64,000 nt of DNA from an uncultured bacterium (GTDB taxonomy: Bacteria; Patescibacteriota; Minisyncoccia; Phycocordibacterales; GWA1-40-21): the NCBI GenBank assembly GCA_903822075.1, contig CAIJNK010000004.1, positions 12,661 through 76,660 of the forward strand. The letters run 5' to 3'. Under the pieces are notes generated by a model that searched no databases, was not told the DNA's origin, and saw only the letters and a list, made by a program, of their open reading frames with translations. Below are positions 3,956-64,000 of this stretch, one piece after another (within the stretch, counting starts at the first letter, position 1; the number at the start of each line of letters is the position of its first letter). A program made the translations under genes and the position numbers.

Positions 3956-4623
3956 TAGACGGTTGGTACATTAATTTCCTCAGCGTCATCCACTTGCTGC
4001 GGATTTATTAAATCAGCTGATTTCTCTGGAGCGGGCTCGGCGGGTTTCTCTTCAGTTAGGTTTTGCTCAAATTCTGCTTTTACTTTTTCGTATTCCGGTA
4101 ATTCTTCTATTTTTGAGACACCTAAAAATTGGAGAAGTTCAAAGGTTGGACGATACAAGAAACTGCGCGCATCCTTTGGATTAGAAATTCTTTCTACTAG
4201 CCCCCTAATCTGTAAGTTGCGTAAAATAAAGTTTGATTGAACACCGCGAATATAATCGATCTCCGCTCTGGATATTGGCCCTTTATAGGCAATAACAGAG
4301 ATGGTTTCCAGGCCGGCCTTGCCCAAGTCTCGGACCAGCTCTTCCTTGGTTAGCCTCTCAATAATATGGGATAGTTTGGCGGCGGTGCCAAGCATAACTT
4401 CATCATCTTTGTAAATCAACTCTACTCCCCTTTCCATTATTTTTTCCTTCAAAACTTCCAAGCCAGTCAAAATTTCCTCTTCTTTTTTTCCCAAACTGGC
4501 TGCCAATTTCTTGATGGATTGCGGCTCGCCTTTCCAGAAAAGCACGGCCTCCAACTGATTATCTAATGACAATTCTTCCATAATTTGGCAATTATAGAAC
4601 ATTTCTTGGATAAATGAAACCAT
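3955..4623 (-). CDS. scpB: segregation and condensation protein B
   Basis: 222 aa; two winged-helix ScpB repeats (…SRAEIDYIRGVQSNFILRNLQIRGLVER…); acidic C-terminal tail. Confidence 0.8.
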   Translation of the reverse strand: MVSFIQEMFYNCQIMEELSLDNQLEAVLFWKGEPQSIKKLAASLGKKEEEILTGLEVLKEKIMERGVELIYKDDEVMLGTAAKLSHIIERLTKEELVRDLGKAGLETISVIAYKGPISRAEIDYIRGVQSNFILRNLQIRGLVERISNPKDARSFLYRPTFELLQFLGVSKIEELPEYEKVKAEFEQNLTEEKPAEPAPEKSADLINPQQVDDAEEINVPTV

Positions 4624-4651
4624 TTGACTTTTGAATCATTTGATGTATAAT
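4624..4651 (+). promoter_or_regulatory. sigma70-like promoter TTGACT-16-TATAAT driving the pilin-like genes 1 and 2
   Basis: TTGACT at 4624-4629 and TGTATAAT at 4644-4651; SD GGAGG at 4706-4710 precedes the ATG at 4716. Confidence 0.55.
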
Positions 4652-4715
4652 CTGTACTAGATTAGTTTGGTGTTGACATTATCGTAAAGTCCCTAAAAGA
4701 GGGCATGGAGGCAAA

Positions 4716-5153
4716 ATGAAGACAAACAAGACTGGTTTTACGTTGGTGGAATTATTGATCATCTCCGTGGTAATTGCGGTCCTGGCAGGGTTTGCTGTTC
4801 CCGCCCTTCGAGAGATGCGTGAAAAGGCTCGACTGGACCAAGAACAGGCGCTAACAAAACAGCTCACGCCGGAGCAAACAGAAGCCAAGCGTCTGGCGGA
4901 CCTGGAACAGCAAAAGGTTGCTGCGGAGCAGGCCATGGAGGCTAAGGTGAATCAGGTTCAGAATTGTGGGCACGGGGCCTACTATTTCCCTTTTGCGGAC
5001 ATGGGCGAGTTTCTTAGCGTCCGTAACGCTTTCATGGATAAACATTCCGGCATGAAGTTCGTGGGTACGGAACCGAATATTGTCGAGCAAGGTTGGGGCG
5101 ATGGGCGCTATGGCATTACCGTTGGTCATGTTGTTTTCTTTCAAGAAGAATAA
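4716..5153 (+). CDS. type IV pilin-like (prepilin-type N-terminal cleavage/methylation) protein, paralog 1
   Basis: MKTNKTG|FTLVELLIISVVIAVLAG: class III leader ending in G, then F-T-L-V-E (Glu5) and a hydrophobic helix; Q/E/A-rich linker; C-terminal GHGAYYFPF domain. Confidence 0.75.
   Translation: MKTNKTGFTLVELLIISVVIAVLAGFAVPALREMREKARLDQEQALTKQLTPEQTEAKRLADLEQQKVAAEQAMEAKVNQVQNCGHGAYYFPFADMGEFLSVRNAFMDKHSGMKFVGTEPNIVEQGWGDGRYGITVGHVVFFQEE
4881..5039 (+). repeat. 159 bp direct repeat, copy A (inside pilin-like gene 1)
   Basis: About 96% identical (6 mismatches by eye) to 6033-6191; encodes EAKRLADLEQQKVAAEQAMEAKVNQVQNCGHGAYYFPFADMGEFLSVRNAFMDK identically in both genes. Confidence 0.85.
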
Positions 5154-5165
5154 ACGGAGGACGAG

Positions 5166-5612
5166 ATGAAGACGAAACAGGGTGGTTTTACGTTGGTGGA
5201 GATTATGATTGTGTTGGCGATCATCGGCTTGCTGGCGGCAATGGCTATTCCGGCTTTCGTTAAGGCGCGCGAAAAGTCACAGCAGTTGGTGGAGGAGAAC
5301 AGGCTGGCGCATTTGACACCGCAACAGCGAGAGAATGAAAATCTGGTCAAACTGGAAGAGCAAAAGCTCGCCCAGCAAAAAACGACCGAGCAAAAATTGA
5401 GTCAGATTCGTCCGTTTGGCCACAACATCTACGAGTTTCCTTTTGTGGGGGACGAGTATCGGTTTATGTTGTCGGCGTTCCAAGATAAGCACCCCGAGCT
5501 GCGTTTCCATAGTGCCGAGGGTGAGGTTGTGGGAGTTCAGACTGGCAGCACAACTGCCTATGGGGCAACGGCGAGTTACACCGTCCATTTCGATGATGAG
5601 GTCAAGCAGTAG
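5166..5612 (+). CDS. type IV pilin-like protein, paralog 2
   Basis: MKTKQGG|FTLVEIMIVLAIIGLLAAMAIPAF prepilin signature; same architecture as paralog 1; SD GGAGGA 6 nt upstream; only 12 nt from gene 1, so the two are co-transcribed. Confidence 0.75.
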   Translation: MKTKQGGFTLVEIMIVLAIIGLLAAMAIPAFVKAREKSQQLVEENRLAHLTPQQRENENLVKLEEQKLAQQKTTEQKLSQIRPFGHNIYEFPFVGDEYRFMLSAFQDKHPELRFHSAEGEVVGVQTGSTTAYGATASYTVHFDDEVKQ

Positions 5613-9766: not shown

Positions 9767-10570
9767 TTACATTATCAAATCTAGCTCGACGTAAAACTGC
9801 GAACCTTTTCCTTCACCTTCGGATTCGGCCCAAACACGGCCATTTTGATCCTCCATCATTTTCTTGGCGACATACAAGCCCAGTCCGGTGCCATGAATGT
9901 TGGTTTTACCGGCGGCAATGCACCGACTGAATTTTTGAAAAAGCAAAGGCATGGTTTCGGGTCTTATGCCCACCCCACTGTCGCGGACGCAAAAGATCAC
10001 CTTCCGGTCATTTTTTGCCAGACTGATTTCAATCCAACCTTTGTCTGTGTATTTGCAGGCATTATCTACCAGATTCAGCAACACATGTTTGATTTTTGCC
10101 TTGTCTCCATGAATAGTGAGCACTTCCGGCGAAATATGCAATCTTATTTCCAAGCCTTTACCTTCAATGATTTTTTTCATTTCATTGATGGCTTCGTTTG
10201 CGAGGTGCGTCAGGTCAAAATCTTTCCGGTAATACCGCATCTCACCTTGCTCGATACGTGACACGTCCAGAAAATCATTTACTGTTTTCCCCAAATTATC
10301 TGTGGACTTGAGCACTATATTCAGTGGCTCGGCAAAACCCGGTGGCACATCGCCAAAGTCACCTTCGAGCACCAGGGAAATGTAACCCTTAATTGCTCCA
10401 ATCGGCCCCCGTATTTGATGGGCGGCGAAAGAAACAAATTCATTGGCCAGTGTGTTTGATGCCTTAAGACTCTCAATCAGATTATGGGCTTCTGCTAGCG
10501 CTTTTTCCAATTCCTGAATTCGGCTGTCCGTCTGGTGTTCAATATTAGTATGATGCTGTATATTTTCCAT
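9767..10570 (-). CDS. cytoplasmic sensor histidine kinase (HisKA + HATPase_c, no TM segment)
   Basis: H-box FVSFAAHQIRGPIGAIKGY; N, G1 and G2 boxes (…DNACKYT…, DSGVGI, GTGLGLYVAKK); 18 nt upstream of trpS on the same strand. Confidence 0.8.
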   Translation of the reverse strand: MENIQHHTNIEHQTDSRIQELEKALAEAHNLIESLKASNTLANEFVSFAAHQIRGPIGAIKGYISLVLEGDFGDVPPGFAEPLNIVLKSTDNLGKTVNDFLDVSRIEQGEMRYYRKDFDLTHLANEAINEMKKIIEGKGLEIRLHISPEVLTIHGDKAKIKHVLLNLVDNACKYTDKGWIEISLAKNDRKVIFCVRDSGVGIRPETMPLLFQKFSRCIAAGKTNIHGTGLGLYVAKKMMEDQNGRVWAESEGEGKGSQFYVELDLIM

Positions 10571-10603
10571 GTTTAATAATTATTTATAATTTAGTTGTAA
10601 AAT

Positions 10604-10651
10604 CAAAAAAACCAAATTTTAATCTTCGCTCGTGGAAAGATTAAAATTTGG
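10604..10651 (-). terminator. strong rho-independent terminator after the membrane histidine kinase
   Basis: Perfect 15 bp stem ccaaattttaatctt / aagattaaaatttgg; run of about 8 U on the minus strand. Confidence 0.8.
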
Positions 10652-10667
10652 TTCTCCAGAATATAAT

Positions 10668-12383
10668 CTATTCTGTTAATTTTAACTCCACATAGAACTG
10701 AGAGCCTTTACCCTCGCCATCGGATTCGGTCCAGATTCGGCCATCGTTTGCTTCCACCATTTTCTTGGCCAAATAGAGACCCAAACCAGTTCCTAAAATA
10801 TTTGTTTCGTTGGCATTCTTAGCTCGAGAGAAGCGTTGGAAGAGTGAAGCAATAGTTTTGGCCGACATACCCACGCCGCTATCTTTGACCGCAAAAATGA
10901 CTTTATTATCTTTTTTCTCCACTGACACCTGCAGCCAGCCTTGCTTGGTATATTTGACGGAATTATCCACCAGATTATTGAAGACTTGCTTGAGCTTGGT
11001 TCGATCGGCATTTATCAGACAGGGGTCGGTTGTAATATTCACTCTGAATTCCAAACCTTTAGCCTCGACGCTCGGTCTGAATTCTTTGACTGTCTCTTCT
11101 ACCAACTCTCGTAAATCAAACTTTGTCAGGTCATATTTCATCTGTCCCAAGTCAATGCGGGAAACATCCAGAAAGTCCGTCACCATGTGGCTGAGGGAAT
11201 CAGTAGACTTAAAAATGGTACTGAGGGGCTCATTAAACTCTTTTGGTACCGTTCCGTAATCCCCTTCAATCATGAGTGATAAGTAACCTTTGATGGCCGC
11301 TAACGGTCCGCGAATCTGGTGCGTGGCCAAGGAGACGAATTCTGATTTCATCAAATCCACTTCCTTCAACTTTTCATTTGTTCCCTCCAGCCGTTCATTG
11401 AACCTTTCCAGTTTCTTGTTTGAATCTTCCAAATTTTGCGCCAATTTCTCAATATGTTCCTTTTGCGCAATTTCGTTTTTGACACCTCGGACAATCATCA
11501 AACCCATAATGGCGGAGAACACCAAAGTGATAGCTGTCAGCACTTTATTGGTATTGCTTTGGATGAAGAAAAATTCCGATCCGATCAAAATCACCTGGGC
11601 CCAAATCAAAGCCTGAGCCCCCAAAAGCTTAATATCAAAAGCTTTGAATTTAACAATGAGAAAAGCTAGAAAAGCCATAAATATGACCATACCAATCTGG
11701 CCATAAATTAAAAATTGCCAGTTACCTAGATCGCTTGCTAAATATCCAGCAGAAAAAAAAGAAAACGCAAATAATGATACGCCTATGGTGGCTAAGAAAG
11801 ATTGTCTTCTTATCTCTCCTTTACTTATTTTTTTATATTTAAAAATAAAATAACCAATTATAAATATAAAGGATAATATACCTACATAGTAATAATAATT
11901 TGTAAAAAGTGAACCCTCGGTTCCTTCACAGTTGGTAATGTCAAAATTTCTCAGGTTGTATATCGTAGGAGTAAAAAATATTACTGGTAATATTGGAACT
12001 ACAAGAAGTCCTTTTTTAAAGGAAGACAGATCTTTTTTATTAATAAATACATAAATGAAATAGATAATAAGTACAGAAATTAGGGAGCTTAGTAGGCCCA
12101 ACAGAGCCCATGAAAACATAGTGATACGGCTGTCAGTACTTATCCATGTTGCTAAGTCACTAATTGACCACAGAGAAAAACAAACAGATATCCAGAAAAG
12201 AATCTTTGGCAATAATTCGCTTTTATTTTTTATATAAACAAATATACCAATAAAAATAGCTGCAACTGATATTGGTATGTGAGAGTATAAGACCAAACTT
12301 ACAGGTATTGATTGTTGGAGAAAATCAGAACATGTTTTTATGTGTGTAATAAAGTTAAAATCCATACTTTTATATATTAACAA
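10668..12383 (-). CDS. membrane sensor histidine kinase (about 8 TM N-terminal domain, coiled coil, HisKA-HATPase_c); paralog of 9767-10570
   Basis: H-box FVSLATHQIRGPLAAIKGY and an ATPase core nearly collinear with the upstream kinase; hydrophobic N-terminal half. Confidence 0.8.
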   Translation of the reverse strand: MLIYKSMDFNFITHIKTCSDFLQQSIPVSLVLYSHIPISVAAIFIGIFVYIKNKSELLPKILFWISVCFSLWSISDLATWISTDSRITMFSWALLGLLSSLISVLIIYFIYVFINKKDLSSFKKGLLVVPILPVIFFTPTIYNLRNFDITNCEGTEGSLFTNYYYYVGILSFIFIIGYFIFKYKKISKGEIRRQSFLATIGVSLFAFSFFSAGYLASDLGNWQFLIYGQIGMVIFMAFLAFLIVKFKAFDIKLLGAQALIWAQVILIGSEFFFIQSNTNKVLTAITLVFSAIMGLMIVRGVKNEIAQKEHIEKLAQNLEDSNKKLERFNERLEGTNEKLKEVDLMKSEFVSLATHQIRGPLAAIKGYLSLMIEGDYGTVPKEFNEPLSTIFKSTDSLSHMVTDFLDVSRIDLGQMKYDLTKFDLRELVEETVKEFRPSVEAKGLEFRVNITTDPCLINADRTKLKQVFNNLVDNSVKYTKQGWLQVSVEKKDNKVIFAVKDSGVGMSAKTIASLFQRFSRAKNANETNILGTGLGLYLAKKMVEANDGRIWTESDGEGKGSQFYVELKLTE

Positions 12384-59074: not shown

Positions 59075-59722
59075 TCAGATGATGGCATATTCCAGAAGAA
59101 GTTCGAGCCCCCTGATCATCTGGTCAACGGACATGGTAATCTTCTTCTCCCTTTCGAACAAGGCGTTATCAGGAACGCATTCGGGCGTACAGGGCAGGTG
59201 AAGAAATACAAACGGAACGGCAATCTCCTCAGTCTGCGCCGCGCACAGTTGCCAGAGCAGATGGTTACAAACAAAGCCACCGGCATCATAAGAGGGATCA
59301 GCCACGGCCAATTTTTCTTCCTGGCATTTTTGCCTGAAATTCGTGATGCGCCACTTTCCAATTGAAGTGTTGGCCAATGGCGCATCCGAGGTCATACTGG
59401 TGCTGATACGTGTACCCGCAAGAGCATCCGGCACATATTTTCCACCCACCTTGTTCCTGGCGATCACCACAATCTGCAAACCTTTTGCCTCAGAGGACAT
59501 GCCCAGGCTGACAACTCCGGCTGCGCCAACTTTTTGCGCCAGCATGAACAAGGCTTCTCCCCTGTTTGTTACTTGCGGAATAATCGGGTCAAAGATCATC
59601 GAATGGACATCAACACCGGTAATGCTCTGACTATGCAAACGCTCAATCACCAGTTCGGACGAATTTTTGAGCCAATCACCATACTTGTGAAAGCCGGAAA
59701 AAACTATCGTTTTATTATTCAC
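59075..59722 (-). CDS. pcp: pyrrolidone-carboxylate (pyroglutamyl) peptidase I, peptidase C15
   Basis: Catalytic Cys block DAGGFVCNHLLWQ; 215 aa from a GTG start. Confidence 0.7.
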   Translation of the reverse strand: MNNKTIVFSGFHKYGDWLKNSSELVIERLHSQSITGVDVHSMIFDPIIPQVTNRGEALFMLAQKVGAAGVVSLGMSSEAKGLQIVVIARNKVGGKYVPDALAGTRISTSMTSDAPLANTSIGKWRITNFRQKCQEEKLAVADPSYDAGGFVCNHLLWQLCAAQTEEIAVPFVFLHLPCTPECVPDNALFEREKKITMSVDQMIRGLELLLEYAII

Positions 59723-60988: not shown

Positions 60989-61112
60989 CCAGTAAAGATA
61001 CCTGAAAAATATGCAAAAGTAAAACTTGTCACGGACTAGCTACAATATTTTTTGCAAAAAAAAGCGTAGTGATAGAGAAACCATCTCAATCACTACGCCC
61101 ACAACAAGCCCT

Positions 61113-62546
61113 TCATCTCTTTTTACTAATCCTCGCCTTCAAAACCGGTCGGGTATGAGCCAGCGCGGCGTTCGAGTATGCCGCAAAGGTTTCTCTTTGT
61201 GACAAAAGCTCACCTGGCATTCCGGCTCGTACCAGTTTTAGCCGGAAATTATCGACATCAGTCTCCGTCGTGTCCGGGCGTCCAGGAAAACTTCCTGGAC
61301 AACCGACAAGCAACACGAACTCGAATTGATGCCACCGATCAGTAAACAGGCGGACCAATTCCCTTGCATCGGCCCAGCGATCGTTTACGCCAGCAAAAAC
61401 CGGAAGTGAAATTATTACCTTTTCGCCGGTTTTGTCTGAAACTTGACCGCCAAGCGCAATGAGCTCTTCCGGTGATAGACGCTTTATGCCCGGCATATAC
61501 TTCTTCCGTATCTCTTTGAAGGCATAATTGAGACTGATGGAGAGCCTGACTGGTAAACTGAGATACTTCAGAATGAACTCCTGAAGACCCGACTTGGAAC
61601 CAACCGTGCTCAACATGAACGAAATGCGCGGCGTTTCCTTTCTTATCAGACGCCTTACAAGCTCCATGCAATTATGGAGGTTGAAGACCAGACCATCACC
61701 CGATCCAATAAAGAAGATCGTCAGACTATCAGCACTAGCGTTGTTTCGAAAAAGGTTTTTAAACGCTTGGCTCTGACTCATGGCAATGAATACCAGTGCC
61801 TCCATTTCGTCAGTGGTGAGTACACGGCAAGGCATTACTTGACCAAAACGATTCAATTGGCTATGCACTTTGCACGTTACACAACGAATAGGACAACCAA
61901 CGGCCGTCGGCATCTCCAACACAATTGACTGCCGATTTGTTAGATCGGGTTTGATGGCCATACTTACTTGTCGACCGTCACTCGTCAGGACGAAGATCAT
62001 ATTTTCAACCTCGCCAAACGGACCATCGGAGAATTCTGACATCAAAAGCCTGGCGGAACTTATTCCGCGCATGTTTTGCGCAAACCTCCAACCGTTAAGT
62101 TGAACGTCGGGGGTATCCAGACACAACCTTCGGAGTCTTACACCTTCCGCCACTTTTTTCAGCAGTGTTTTTGTTTGAAGCGAATTAAACTCTGTCGGCT
62201 GCCTTGGATTAGCTCGGCGCAGTATCAACGCTTCCGGCATAAAAGTTGAACCTAAAGCTGTAGCGACTTTCTCTTGGTCACTAGCCAGAAGTAGGATATT
62301 TATATCACCGAGAATCGCTCTCAGCTTTAACATAAAATCAACCCCGGATTGATCACCAATCTGAAAATCTAGAATTGCCAGCCTAAATCTCTGTCCCGAC
62401 ACAATCGACCTAGCTATCTCATAATTTGCTTGGCCAAAGGTTTTCGCGACAGTCACTTCATAAGCCTCGTCTGCCAATGCCATTAATACGGCCATAGCGT
62501 CCGGGGCCACCACCAAGATCCGACCCTTGGACATAATCATAAACAC
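61113..62546 (-). CDS. response-regulator receiver domain fused to an RlmN/Cfr-like radical-SAM domain (both methyl-transfer cysteines absent)
   Basis: N-terminal REC-like about 120 aa (…RILVVAPD…LAILDFQIGD…LLLASD…). CPIRCVTC matches Cx3Cx2C. Blocks collinear with RlmN: VGCPIRCVTC~VGCALECKFC, IGSGDGLVFNLHN~MGMGEPLLNLNN, RISFMLSTVG~RVTLSTSG, VIISLPVFAGVND~VTIEYVMLDHVND. No Cys at the RlmN C118 or C355 equivalents. About 52% GC versus the window average of about 40%. Confidence 0.6.
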   Translation of the reverse strand: MFMIMSKGRILVVAPDAMAVLMALADEAYEVTVAKTFGQANYEIARSIVSGQRFRLAILDFQIGDQSGVDFMLKLRAILGDINILLLASDQEKVATALGSTFMPEALILRRANPRQPTEFNSLQTKTLLKKVAEGVRLRRLCLDTPDVQLNGWRFAQNMRGISSARLLMSEFSDGPFGEVENMIFVLTSDGRQVSMAIKPDLTNRQSIVLEMPTAVGCPIRCVTCKVHSQLNRFGQVMPCRVLTTDEMEALVFIAMSQSQAFKNLFRNNASADSLTIFFIGSGDGLVFNLHNCMELVRRLIRKETPRISFMLSTVGSKSGLQEFILKYLSLPVRLSISLNYAFKEIRKKYMPGIKRLSPEELIALGGQVSDKTGEKVIISLPVFAGVNDRWADARELVRLFTDRWHQFEFVLLVGCPGSFPGRPDTTETDVDNFRLKLVRAGMPGELLSQRETFAAYSNAALAHTRPVLKARISKKR

Positions 62547-62634
62547 CTCCTGTTTGAGGTTTGGAATTTTTCAGAGAACAATACCGCCATCCAACCAGTT
62601 GGCTTTGGGCGTCTTATCTGACTAAACAATACAC

Positions 62635-63870
62635 CTAAAAATAACCATTGTCAAATTTTACGGGGAGATGGACGACGAATAGAGTCCCCACCTTGGGCTT
62701 ACTTGATACACCAATATACCCGCCATGCTCTTCGGCTATATGTTTACAAATGGCCAGTCCCAAGCCGGAACCACCCTCTTTACGATTCCGAGATTTATCA
62801 GCTCGATAAAAGCGTTCAAAAATATGTGGCAAATCAAGCTCCGAGATACCAAAACCCCCATCCTCCACGTTCAGACAAAAAGCGTCTTCAGCCTTGGCTA
62901 CCCAGACTTTTATCCAACCATTTTCTTTGTTGTATTTAATGGCATTCCGAACAAGATTGGTGAGTAGTTTTTCCAAATCTTCAATGTTACCCATTATTTT
63001 CGCCGGCTTCCCCGCATACTTATGCTCGATTGTTATATTCTTCTCGGCCGCCACAACTCTTAATTTTTCACAAACATTGGCAATCAAGGAATTTAAGTCA
63101 ATTTTTTCAAAACGTAATCTGGCTGTAATATTTGAATGAGGCTTGGCCAAAAGAGCTAAGTCTGTCAGCATACCAGAAACTCTTTTAATTTCAGTCGATA
63201 TGTTTCTGAACAAATCCAAGTTATCATCTTTTAATTCTTCTGATTTAGCTATAAGCTCGAGACTGCACTGCATAATAGTAAGAGCCGTTCGAAATTCATG
63301 AGAAACATCAGCCATAAATATCGACTTCAATTCAAGGGTTTTGTTCAGTTCTTTGTTCACGTTGTGAAGTTCCTCGGTCCTTTGTTCCACCCTTTCCTCA
63401 AGGATCTTATTCAATTCAACTAGTTTATTCTTGGAAATTACGGCGTCCGTATTATCCAAAGCCATGGATATCGCCCCTTCGATGTGCCCATCCTTGTCTT
63501 TATATGGAACGGCGATAATCTTGAAATATCGGTCTTCGCCGACACCCTGGCTATCTTTTTCGTAAAAATGCTCGCGCCGAACTATCTTTTTCTCTCCGGA
63601 CAACATTTTTTTGTAGTCATCAGCCAAATTGTCTTCGAAAAAAAACTTGTCTTTATAAATATTATGGTTGTGGTAGTCTTTAATTCGAGAATTATTTTCA
63701 AAATACTTATTTACTGAGGTAATATAACCGCCGTCATTTATAGTAATAAGACTGATTGGAATATTATCCAAAACAATCTGATTGAACTTATCAGACAGAC
63801 GACGTCCCCTGCCGGGAATACGGCGATCACCAATTGATTGTTCTATTTTTTTACTGTTGTTTTTTCTCAC
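62635..63870 (-). CDS. cytoplasmic PAS-domain sensor histidine kinase
   Basis: PAS-like N-terminal region, HisKA (MADVSHEFRTALTIM), HATPase_c (…NAIKYN…, DGGFGI, GSGLGLAICK); adjacent to the REC-radical-SAM gene. Confidence 0.75.
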   Translation of the reverse strand: MRKNNSKKIEQSIGDRRIPGRGRRLSDKFNQIVLDNIPISLITINDGGYITSVNKYFENNSRIKDYHNHNIYKDKFFFEDNLADDYKKMLSGEKKIVRREHFYEKDSQGVGEDRYFKIIAVPYKDKDGHIEGAISMALDNTDAVISKNKLVELNKILEERVEQRTEELHNVNKELNKTLELKSIFMADVSHEFRTALTIMQCSLELIAKSEELKDDNLDLFRNISTEIKRVSGMLTDLALLAKPHSNITARLRFEKIDLNSLIANVCEKLRVVAAEKNITIEHKYAGKPAKIMGNIEDLEKLLTNLVRNAIKYNKENGWIKVWVAKAEDAFCLNVEDGGFGISELDLPHIFERFYRADKSRNRKEGGSGLGLAICKHIAEEHGGYIGVSSKPKVGTLFVVHLPVKFDNGYF

Positions 63871-64000
63871 TTTTGGATTCTAACATAATTAGTGGGTTTT
63901 GGAAAGTATAAGATGGACATATTTAATCATAAATTTATCCTCAGCTATTTATAATTGTCCCCATGAATGTAACCAAATTAATTATTGAGGATTTTAGAAA

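Follow-up and report, generated by a model that had tools for sequence, protein, structure and literature searches.

A kinase-linked family of receiver-RlmN/Cfr-like radical-SAM proteins in CPR/Patescibacteria, with a derived member lacking both RlmN mechanistic cysteines

The stretch of DNA analyzed here, 64 000 nucleotides in full length (the window), was found to encode a protein, P0001, in which a receiver-like domain precedes an RlmN/Cfr-like radical-SAM core and whose gene follows that of a PAS histidine kinase. P0001 belongs to a previously undescribed receiver-RlmN/Cfr-like family, found here in CPR/Patescibacteria, and the linkage to a kinase is conserved in that family. As judged from its aligned residues, P0001 is a derived member, in which those serving normal phosphorylation and RlmN-type methylation have been lost. 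The explanation that we favor, taken as a whole, is that of a derived member of a kinase-tied family, with this copy being an Fe-S/SAM-binding accessory or branch rather than an RlmN-type methylase, and we regard that explanation as evenly poised between right and wrong. The features of the locus are as follows.

62635..63870, minus strand: soluble PAS-HisKA-HATPase_c histidine kinase of 411 aa (Pfam matches; orthologues at the same position elsewhere)
62654-62626, minus strand: promoter-like site (10/12 match in a promoter scan), with its -35 hexamer inside the 3' end of the kinase gene
62541..62634, minus strand: 94-nt spacer between the kinase and P0001 genes, holding promoter-like site, motif and Shine-Dalgarno sequence
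62568-62579, minus strand: spacer motif GTTCTCTGAAAA
62546-62550, minus strand: Shine-Dalgarno sequence GGAGG of P0001
61113..62540, minus strand: receiver-RlmN/Cfr-like radical-SAM protein P0001, 475 aa, stop included (ORF calls; AF2 model)
62196..62540, minus strand: receiver-like (beta-alpha)5 domain of P0001, aa 1-115
61941..62195, minus strand: linker of P0001, aa 116-200, with two helices, plus beta strands that run on to the radical-SAM core (from the modeled secondary structure)
61155..61940, minus strand: RlmN/Cfr-like radical-SAM core of P0001, aa 201-462
61056..61100, minus strand: intrinsic-terminator-like hairpin followed by U8, closing the transcription unit (RNA fold)

Both minus-strand ORFs, that of the kinase and that of the receiver/radical-SAM protein, had been reported in a first-pass annotation of the window and were indeed present, with the correction that the latter, given there as 477 aa from GTG 62546, is likelier to start at ATG 62540, with GGAGG 5 nt upstream, yielding 475 aa. 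Modeling of P0001 using AF2 with the family alignment as input gave a pLDDT of 87.9 and a pTM of 0.89, superseding a model made from the single sequence (pLDDT 39.5). The spacer motif recurred in 6-7 family loci, at 25-40 nt before the start codon, the motif upstream of the receiver-radical-SAM family genes being GTTCTYTGARAA, and showed no enrichment elsewhere within the window. The spacer matched nothing in Rfam, neither a riboswitch nor any other RNA, and its predicted RNA fold was no more stable than those of shuffled sequences. For the terminator-like hairpin the folding energy was -23.4 kcal/mol (z -6.9), with 0 of 200 shuffled sequences being equally stable.

A word-indexed homology search with P0001 returned only P0001 itself together with ordinary RlmN-like proteins, and such a search with the family profile was dominated by generic matches to receivers and radical-SAM proteins. 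Exhaustive searching gave 291 matches at E ≤ 1e-3, of which 150 were listed, with at least 77 full-length representatives (at least 400 aa) having the same architecture as P0001, which is thereby no orphan. The counts of residues given herein refer to these 77 listed members. Named family loci were those of Saccharibacteria, Paceibacterota and Parcubacteria. Using P0001 as query, no related loci were found in GTDB genomes, and a metagenome scan for its own clade recovered the P0008 contig alone; a literature search revealed no paper describing fusions of a receiver with a radical-SAM or RlmN domain. The receiver domain is predicted from the sequences to be ancestral in the family, with the complete receiver quintet being present in 55/77 members. 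A C355-type Cys, sitting in a GCG motif, was found in 68/77 and the C118-type Cys was missing in 59/77. Having kept the carrier Cys without the resolving Cys, most members are thus in a state like that of the C118A variant of RlmN, with which a covalent enzyme-RNA adduct is trapped. Eight members with neither Cys, P0001 included, formed one clade in a neighbor-joining tree without support values.

That a histidine kinase lies immediately upstream on the same strand was borne out, with HATPase_c at 99.3 bits and HisKA at 40.5 bits, both above the Pfam cut-offs, and with the H-box histidine found within SHEFRT of the translation. Its PAS domain was sub-threshold here (PAS_9, 20.4 bits versus 27) but has been recorded in the orthologues. 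When the neighborhoods of homologues were surveyed for a kinase partner, as had been proposed, a same-strand PAS kinase was found upstream in 12/12 loci with context, and directly adjacent to the family gene in 11 of these 12, a count leaving out P0044 and P0057 because of their too short contigs. As seen by tblastn, an orthologous PAS kinase (44-59% identity) was located directly upstream in the window as well as in 9/9 further family loci, and two more distant family loci also had a PAS kinase upstream. Such conservation of gene order establishes that the two are functionally linked, though not in which direction or by what mechanism. The earlier description as a simple two-component pair thus stood with regards to the kinase but not with regards to being a pair only, as the neighborhood also holds an OmpR-type regulator. 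A canonical regulator of this type is encoded about 750 nt upstream of the kinase, just beyond the window end, whereby the kinase has a second partner, and one was found at no more than 6 kb in 8/12 family loci. The further kinases at 9767-12383, which had been suggested to feed into P0001, are real, but nothing links them to it.

The C-terminal part of P0001 had been described as collinear with RlmN/Cfr, and this was found to hold, with RlmN/Cfr being the best-matching radical-SAM family both by sequence and by fold. Its cluster motif CPIRCVTC could also be confirmed, as C216-x3-C220-x2-C223 (61872-61895), and the three corresponding columns had Cys in 77/77, 77/77 and 76/77 members. The putative SAM-binding motifs were kept, including G281/D282 of the GxGD motif, N287 and R345; G281, N287 and R345 are each present in 76/77 members, and D282 is likewise conserved family-wide. 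Scored alone, P0001 stayed below the cut-offs of Radical_SAM PF04055 (19.9 versus 29.5 bits), TIGR00048 (38.4 versus 290 bits) and TIGR04432 (30.4 versus 550 bits), and the protein passed the cut-off of none of the Pfam and NCBIfam models. No match was found in P0001 to PF21016, the RlmN-type N-terminal accessory domain, with receiver and linker instead filling aa 1-200 and the profile alignment to RlmN/Cfr beginning at about profile position 164-174; this region takes the place of the N-terminal domain of RlmN. The radical-SAM half is basic (pI 9.75).

The alignment also agreed with the reported absence of both RlmN mechanistic cysteines. At the column of the resolving C118, which precedes the cluster motif by seven residues, P0001 has E209 (61914-61916), with Cys in 18/77 members, and at that of the methyl-carrying C355 (E. 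coli AACGQL) it has L460 (61161-61163, in AALAH), the column of the 68 cysteines given above. Both columns were Cys in 10/10 canonical RlmN-like outgroups. RlmN requires both cysteines, C355 having the methyl-carrier role (PMC5130265). As both are lost, P0001 therefore cannot use the RlmN methyl-cysteine mechanism, a loss that would still leave room for other radical chemistry.

The receiver-like nature of the N-terminus, as first claimed, was upheld by a CheY-like (beta-alpha)5 fold and an aligned acceptor Asp. The candidate phospho-acceptor that had been pointed out in LAILDFQIGD is D58 (AILDF; 62367-62369, at the end of beta3), whose counterpart in the alignment is the acceptor Asp in both the OmpR-type regulator and 8pdc, this residue being Asp in 72/77 members. 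P0001 alone scored 18.3 bits with Response_reg PF00072, below the cut-off of 30.2, the family profile found PDB receiver domains at 1e-16, and Pfam Response_reg matched 23/32 family members at E ≤ 1e-3 (best 2.4e-18). P0001 has, however, kept only D58 among the five catalytic residues of a receiver, the other four being replaced. Thus, the acidic pair after beta1, forming the Mg2+ ligands, is A12 P13 (62502-62507; D/E in 68/77 and D in 59/77 members at the two columns), the beta4 Thr/Ser is A86 (62283-62285; Thr/Ser in 68/77) and the beta5 Lys is R108 (62217-62219; Lys in 67/77). The sister protein P0008 has the same DD to AP, T to A and K to R changes, and also shares D14, following A12 P13. 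What had been proposed as a phosphorylation-controlled enzyme is, for the P0001 copy, not supported in view of these replacements, with which P0001 would probably accept a phosphoryl group poorly if at all, although residual phosphorylation would be conceivable via D58 with the nearby D14. The degenerate receiver was seen in two lineages only, P0001 and P0008/P0166, and selection on that state is therefore weakly documented.

According to the explanation that we favor, the family is one in which a receiver domain stands in for the N-terminal domain seen in radical-SAM enzymes of the RlmN/Cfr type, and its PAS kinase most likely phosphorylates a pair of regulators, an OmpR-type transcriptional one and a radical-SAM enzymatic one, with the latter probably acting on RNA. 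In the P0001/P0008 lineage the acidic pair, Thr and Lys have been lost together with both RlmN cysteines, with the cluster cysteines and SAM motifs kept. P0001 would then most likely serve as an Fe-S/SAM-binding accessory or branch of the kinase system, docking on the PAS kinase via its pseudo-receiver and coupling the status of cluster or SAM, or a non-methylating radical reaction, to signaling. Such an accessory or sensor role is inferred, as are phosphotransfer within the family and RNA being the substrate.

The alternative surviving best is that P0001 is a working response regulator, in which phosphorylation of D58 by the kinase switches on an active non-RlmN radical-SAM chemistry, such as abstraction of a hydrogen from RNA or from some other substrate. 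In its favor, the acceptor Asp is retained, the D14 common to P0008 might replace a metal ligand, and the adjacent kinase is intact, as are the cluster and SAM motifs. The Cys-less clade furthermore has six other members with either a DD or ED pair together with the Lys (P0027, P0028, P0033, P0037 and P0038) or an Asp acceptor with Arg (P0031). In CheY-like receivers, however, it is the acidic pair, Thr and Lys that bind Mg2+ and the phosphoryl group, and P0001 has other residues at all four of these positions; the P0008 receiver, in addition, carries an insertion of roughly 36 aa. We thus hold a working regulator to be possible, albeit on the unlikely side.

With catalytic residues gone from both domains and P0001 alone falling under every curated cut-off, the gene could also be thought of as a remnant without function, in decay from a receiver-RlmN-like gene that was once active. 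This we find improbable, in view of the intact ORF of 475 codons with its strong Shine-Dalgarno sequence and own terminator, the full-length identity of 39% with P0008 (the two having CPIRC, GLVFNL and numerous core residues in common), the confident structure model, and DNA that was identical in three recovered contigs from different samples. Since these copies are DNA-identical, synonymous differences are unusable for a selection test. A pseudogene reading was hence rejected on the basis of ORF, expression signals, conservation with P0008 and model.

It had also been suggested that the segment is about 52% GC and horizontally acquired, which would make P0001 a recently acquired GC-rich foreign gene unrelated to the adjoining kinase. 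The GC content was overstated, being 47.8% for the gene and 50.0% in the best 500-nt window; this does place the gene in the top 1-2% of windows, with three other genes of the window being equally GC-rich. Tetranucleotide z was at most 1.7 and GC3 about 1 sd over the window mean, and the order of kinase and family gene is kept in all of the 12 loci with context. In 9/10 orthologous loci the family gene was GC-richer than its locus, beside an AT-rich co-inherited kinase, and the excess is therefore a family trait, the recurrence of which argues against recent horizontal transfer. Acquisition as a foreign island was thereby largely refuted and rejected as highly improbable. That P0001 would be the organism's housekeeping m2A2503/A37 methylase RlmN, extended at its N-terminus, as could be presumed from RlmN/Cfr being its best-matching family and from relatives automatically named 'adenine C2-methylase RlmN', is scarcely credible and was rejected, considering the absence of both required cysteines, the TIGR00048 score (38 bits) far under the cut-off of 290 and the replaced N-terminal domain.

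A bolder proposal for CPR organisms is that phosphorylation by the PAS kinase controls an RlmN/Cfr-type enzyme modifying or covalently capturing RNA, with the P0001 lineage having turned into a Cys-less pseudo-receiver that reports Fe-S/SAM status to the kinase; this we consider speculative and rather unlikely. CPR organisms are often without a housekeeping rlmN (PMC12641178). If the family is active, these minimal-genome organisms would have their RNA modification tied to environmental sensing, and if the RNA enzyme is indeed kinase-controlled, a sensor signal would directly reach the chemistry of the ribosome or of tRNA. Class A radical-SAM methylases could moreover be studied in a natural series within the family, whose members have both cysteines, the carrier only or neither. 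The window holds the most derived state and is therefore relevant to the conversion of enzymes and receivers into signaling parts without catalysis.

Response regulators with enzymatic output are well known, as are RlmN and Cfr. With these class A radical-SAM RNA methyltransferases (PDB 3rf9, 6fz6, 9p0p) the P0001 family shares collinear motifs, namely CxxxCxxC, GxG(D/E), the S-x-(H/N) strand, GVND and the C-terminal strand, as well as, in most listed members, the C355-type Cys in its GCG motif. The family differs from them in having a receiver at the N-terminus, in scoring far under the curated cut-offs, in its histidine kinase tie and in the C118-type Cys that most listed members lack, with P0001 having neither Cys. 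CheB (methylesterase), PleD and WspR (GGDEF), RpfG (HD-GYP) and RocR (EAL) also have a receiver followed by an enzyme domain beside a histidine kinase, and the structural matches included receiver-HD and CheB structures; unlike these regulators, P0001 has a radical-SAM iron-sulfur domain as output and lacks four of five receiver catalytic residues. Pseudo-receivers and atypical response regulators such as FrzS exist, from which P0001 is set apart by its kept acceptor Asp, the intact adjoining kinase and the canonical receiver in the majority of the listed family members. In branched two-component systems, finally, one kinase serves two regulators, and the neighborhood of the PAS kinase similarly holds, besides an OmpR-type regulator, another protein with a receiver, with the differences that this second branch is a radical-SAM domain and that the phosphotransfer pattern is putative.

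The two minus-strand open reading frames described in the first-pass annotation as a two-component pair were both present, with one of them, previously 477 aa, being corrected in length. A GTG start at 62546, obtained by ORF calling, overlaps the Shine–Dalgarno sequence GGAGG, and an ATG at 62540 lies 5 nt downstream of it; because of this spacing, and because the public gene call for the protein (P0001, here the target) likewise has 475 aa, we adopted the coordinates 61113–62540 and the 475-aa numbering.

62635–63870, minus strand: PAS histidine kinase, 411-aa ORF (HisKA 40.5 bits, HATPase_c 99.3 bits)
61113–62540, minus strand: receiver–radical-SAM gene (target), 475 aa, ATG start

The HisKA and HATPase_c scores of the kinase exceed the Pfam cut-offs, its PAS_9 match is sub-threshold (20.4 versus 27), and its N-terminus has no hydrophobic segment, so that the enzyme looks soluble. 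Within the 94-nt spacer between kinase and target gene, the motif GTTCTYTGARAA(C)T at 62568–62579 (minus strand) was seen, which recurs 25–40 nt 5′ of the family start codon in six to seven otherwise dissimilar spacers (besides the window, in loci L004, L005, L007, L009, L013 and L014); it was not enriched elsewhere in the window, had no Rfam match, and could be a candidate operator or 5′-UTR element. A weak 5-bp hairpin (ACCTC...GAGGT; 62545–62560, minus strand) pairs the Shine–Dalgarno sequence of the target gene with an upstream anti-SD. The unit ends, 3′ of the stop codon, in a strong hairpin (−23.4 kcal/mol, z −6.9) that carries a U8 tail.

When used on the target alone, the Pfam models Response_reg and Radical_SAM and the best NCBIfam match, TIGR00048 (RlmN), all matched but below their cut-offs (18.3 versus 30.2, 19.9 versus 29.5 and 38.4 versus 290 bits, respectively), with PDB sequence matches to RlmN 6fz6 (2e-9), Cfr 9p0p (4e-5) and, weakly, receiver domains. 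An exhaustive phmmer search among 1.84 billion representatives gave 291 matches at E ≤ 1e-3; the 150 of these that were listed included 77 full-length proteins (at least 400 aa), to which all counts out of 77 refer, most aligning over both domains. A 32-member family profile matched Cfr (3e-31), RlmN (2e-29 to 8e-28) and receiver domains (~1e-16), thereby bearing out the proposed receiver plus RlmN/Cfr-like architecture in spite of the sub-threshold scores of the target itself. Response_reg was matched by 23 of the 32 members (best 2.4e-18) and TIGR00048 by 31, the TIGR00048 scores all being below cut-off, and no NCBIfam model reached its cut-off against the family. The AlphaFold model of the target built with the family alignment was confident (pLDDT 87.9, pTM 0.89). 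Automated database names of the family conflict (‘response regulator’, ‘adenine C2-methylase RlmN’, ‘multi-sensor hybrid histidine kinase’), taxon names on three loci or proteins were Candidatus Saccharibacteria, Candidatus Paceibacterota and Parcubacteria, and literature searches found no paper on a receiver–RlmN/radical-SAM fusion.

Functional positions in the target and in the 77 listed full-length family members
Receiver acidic pair: A12 and P13 in the target; first position D/E in 68/77, second D in 59/77
Receiver acceptor Asp: D58 in the target; Asp in 72/77
Receiver Thr/Ser position: A86 in the target; T/S in 68/77
Receiver Lys position: R108 in the target; Lys in 67/77
RlmN C118 (resolving Cys) column: E209 in the target, within IVLEMPTAVGCPIRCVTC; Cys in 18/77
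RlmN C355 (methyl-carrier Cys) column: L460 in the target, within AALAH; Cys in 68/77
Three cluster cysteines: kept in the target; Cys in 77, 77 and 76 of 77
G281, N287 and R345: kept in the target; each in 76/77

The family aligned with the OmpR-type regulator of the target's organism in hhalign (Prob 96.7, E 4.7e-10), and the aspartate earlier named as candidate phospho-acceptor, D58, indeed falls at the acceptor position. It is the only one of the five classical receiver positions that the target retains, the complete quintet being found in 55 of the 77 listed members. The sister protein P0008 likewise lacks the acidic pair, Thr and Lys, has a receiver insertion of ~36 aa, and shares with the target D14, which might partially compensate. 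With those positions lost, the target receiver is probably phosphorylation-incompetent, with D14 leaving some doubt. When the target was aligned with ten RlmN-like proteins of the canonical type, which carry the motifs xxC[VLI]S[ST]QxGCxxxCxFC and AACGQL, the absence of both RlmN cysteines from it was confirmed. Neither is present in eight listed members (P0001, P0008, P0027, P0028, P0031, P0033, P0037 and P0038), which form one clade nested within the family in a neighbour-joining tree without support values, and the loss is thus derived.

The public contig holding the window locus, L001, continues beyond the window end and has the order OmpR-type regulator, RelA/SpoT synthetase, PAS kinase, receiver–radical-SAM protein and YchF, with the first two genes located just past window position 64000.

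L001 1246–2588 region: OmpR-type regulator, 226 aa, fully canonical
L001 1246–2588 region, opposite strand: RelA/SpoT small alarmone synthetase, between regulator and PAS kinase
Window 9767–10570, minus strand: short, soluble histidine kinase, genuine
Window 10668–12383, minus strand: histidine kinase with 7TM sensor region, genuine

The regulator–synthetase pair is also found in L004 (synthetase 57% identical). Using tblastn, full-length orthologues of the PAS kinase (44–59% identity) were found directly upstream of the family gene, and in its orientation, in nine of nine further loci (L004, L005, L007, L009, L011, L013, L014, L015 and L016), with concordant gene calls, the kinase being far better conserved than the radical-SAM protein (family members 26–39% identical to the target). 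With the more distant P0047 (kinase 31 nt upstream) and P0062 (one intervening gene), a PAS kinase was upstream in all 12 loci with context, answering the earlier call for a conserved kinase partner, and an OmpR-type regulator lay within 6 kb in eight. The two kinases at 9767–12383 had been proposed to feed into the target; they are real, and tblastn detected no canonical receiver elsewhere in the 64-kb window, but it is the PAS kinase next to the target that is conserved as its partner, and nothing ties the other two to the target.

From architecture and synteny, we infer a soluble PAS kinase that would feed two regulators, one a transcription factor of the OmpR type and the other an RlmN/Cfr-like enzyme under receiver control, in an uncharacterised kinase-linked family of which the target is a doubly degenerate member. 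The first-pass observation was hence real, with numerical corrections, and its interpretation holds in part. For the target, normal phosphorylation and methylation of the RlmN type are both implausible, yet it maintains cluster and SAM motifs, full-length fold and translation signals, and its radical-SAM half has stayed basic (pI 9.75); we therefore favour, at about even chances, a predicted iron–sulfur/SAM-binding accessory or branch of the PAS-kinase system that would still dock on the kinase. Architecture and kinase linkage are near certain, the mechanistic part of this reading weak. The main rival, a target still phosphorylatable through D58 and performing other radical chemistry, seems less likely given the lost receiver positions. 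A pseudogene, as the double degeneration could suggest, is improbable beside the maintained features.

Horizontal acquisition had been proposed from a GC content of 52%, which was an overestimate: the target gene has 47.8% (window-gene mean 41.1%, sd 3.8; three other genes at 48–49%) and GC3 of 0.487 (0.425 ± 0.065), the best 500-nt window reaches 50.0% (within the top 2.4%), and the tetranucleotide distance does not exceed 1.7 sd. Moreover, the family gene is GC-richer than both its locus and the adjacent kinase in nine of ten loci (window, L004, L005, L007, L009, L011, L013, L014 and L016; the exception is L015), as in L004 (52.2% versus 40.1% and 35.7%), extending to third codon positions (L004 GC3 0.626, kinase 0.347). 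This recurrent offset beside a co-inherited AT-rich kinase disfavours recent transfer into this genome, making a foreign island more improbable still. Among the genes of the window, GC content is highest (49.2%, GC3 0.556) in a divergent pyroglutamyl-peptidase-I-like gene at 59075–59722 (minus strand; Peptidase_C15 48.6 bits), which has ychF on one side and, on the other, AT-rich hypothetical-protein genes, one of them for a DUF2157 membrane protein. The strongest tetranucleotide outliers are 11400–12000 (~30.6% GC, within the 7TM kinase gene) and 4600–5200 (~50% GC). Least credible is a housekeeping RlmN, with both RlmN cysteines replaced.

In RlmN, C355 is the methyl carrier and C118 is needed for methylation, with a C118A mutant having served to trap the covalent enzyme–tRNA complex (PMC5130265). 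Both cysteines occur in only 17 of the 77 listed family members, and several carrier-only members instead have a Cys at −3, −4 or −8 before the cluster motif. Since most members keep the methyl-carrier but not the resolving Cys, their chemistry likely differs from that of RlmN; 50 of the 77 listed (among P0009–P0036 and others) are in the same cysteine state as the adduct-trapping C118A mutant.
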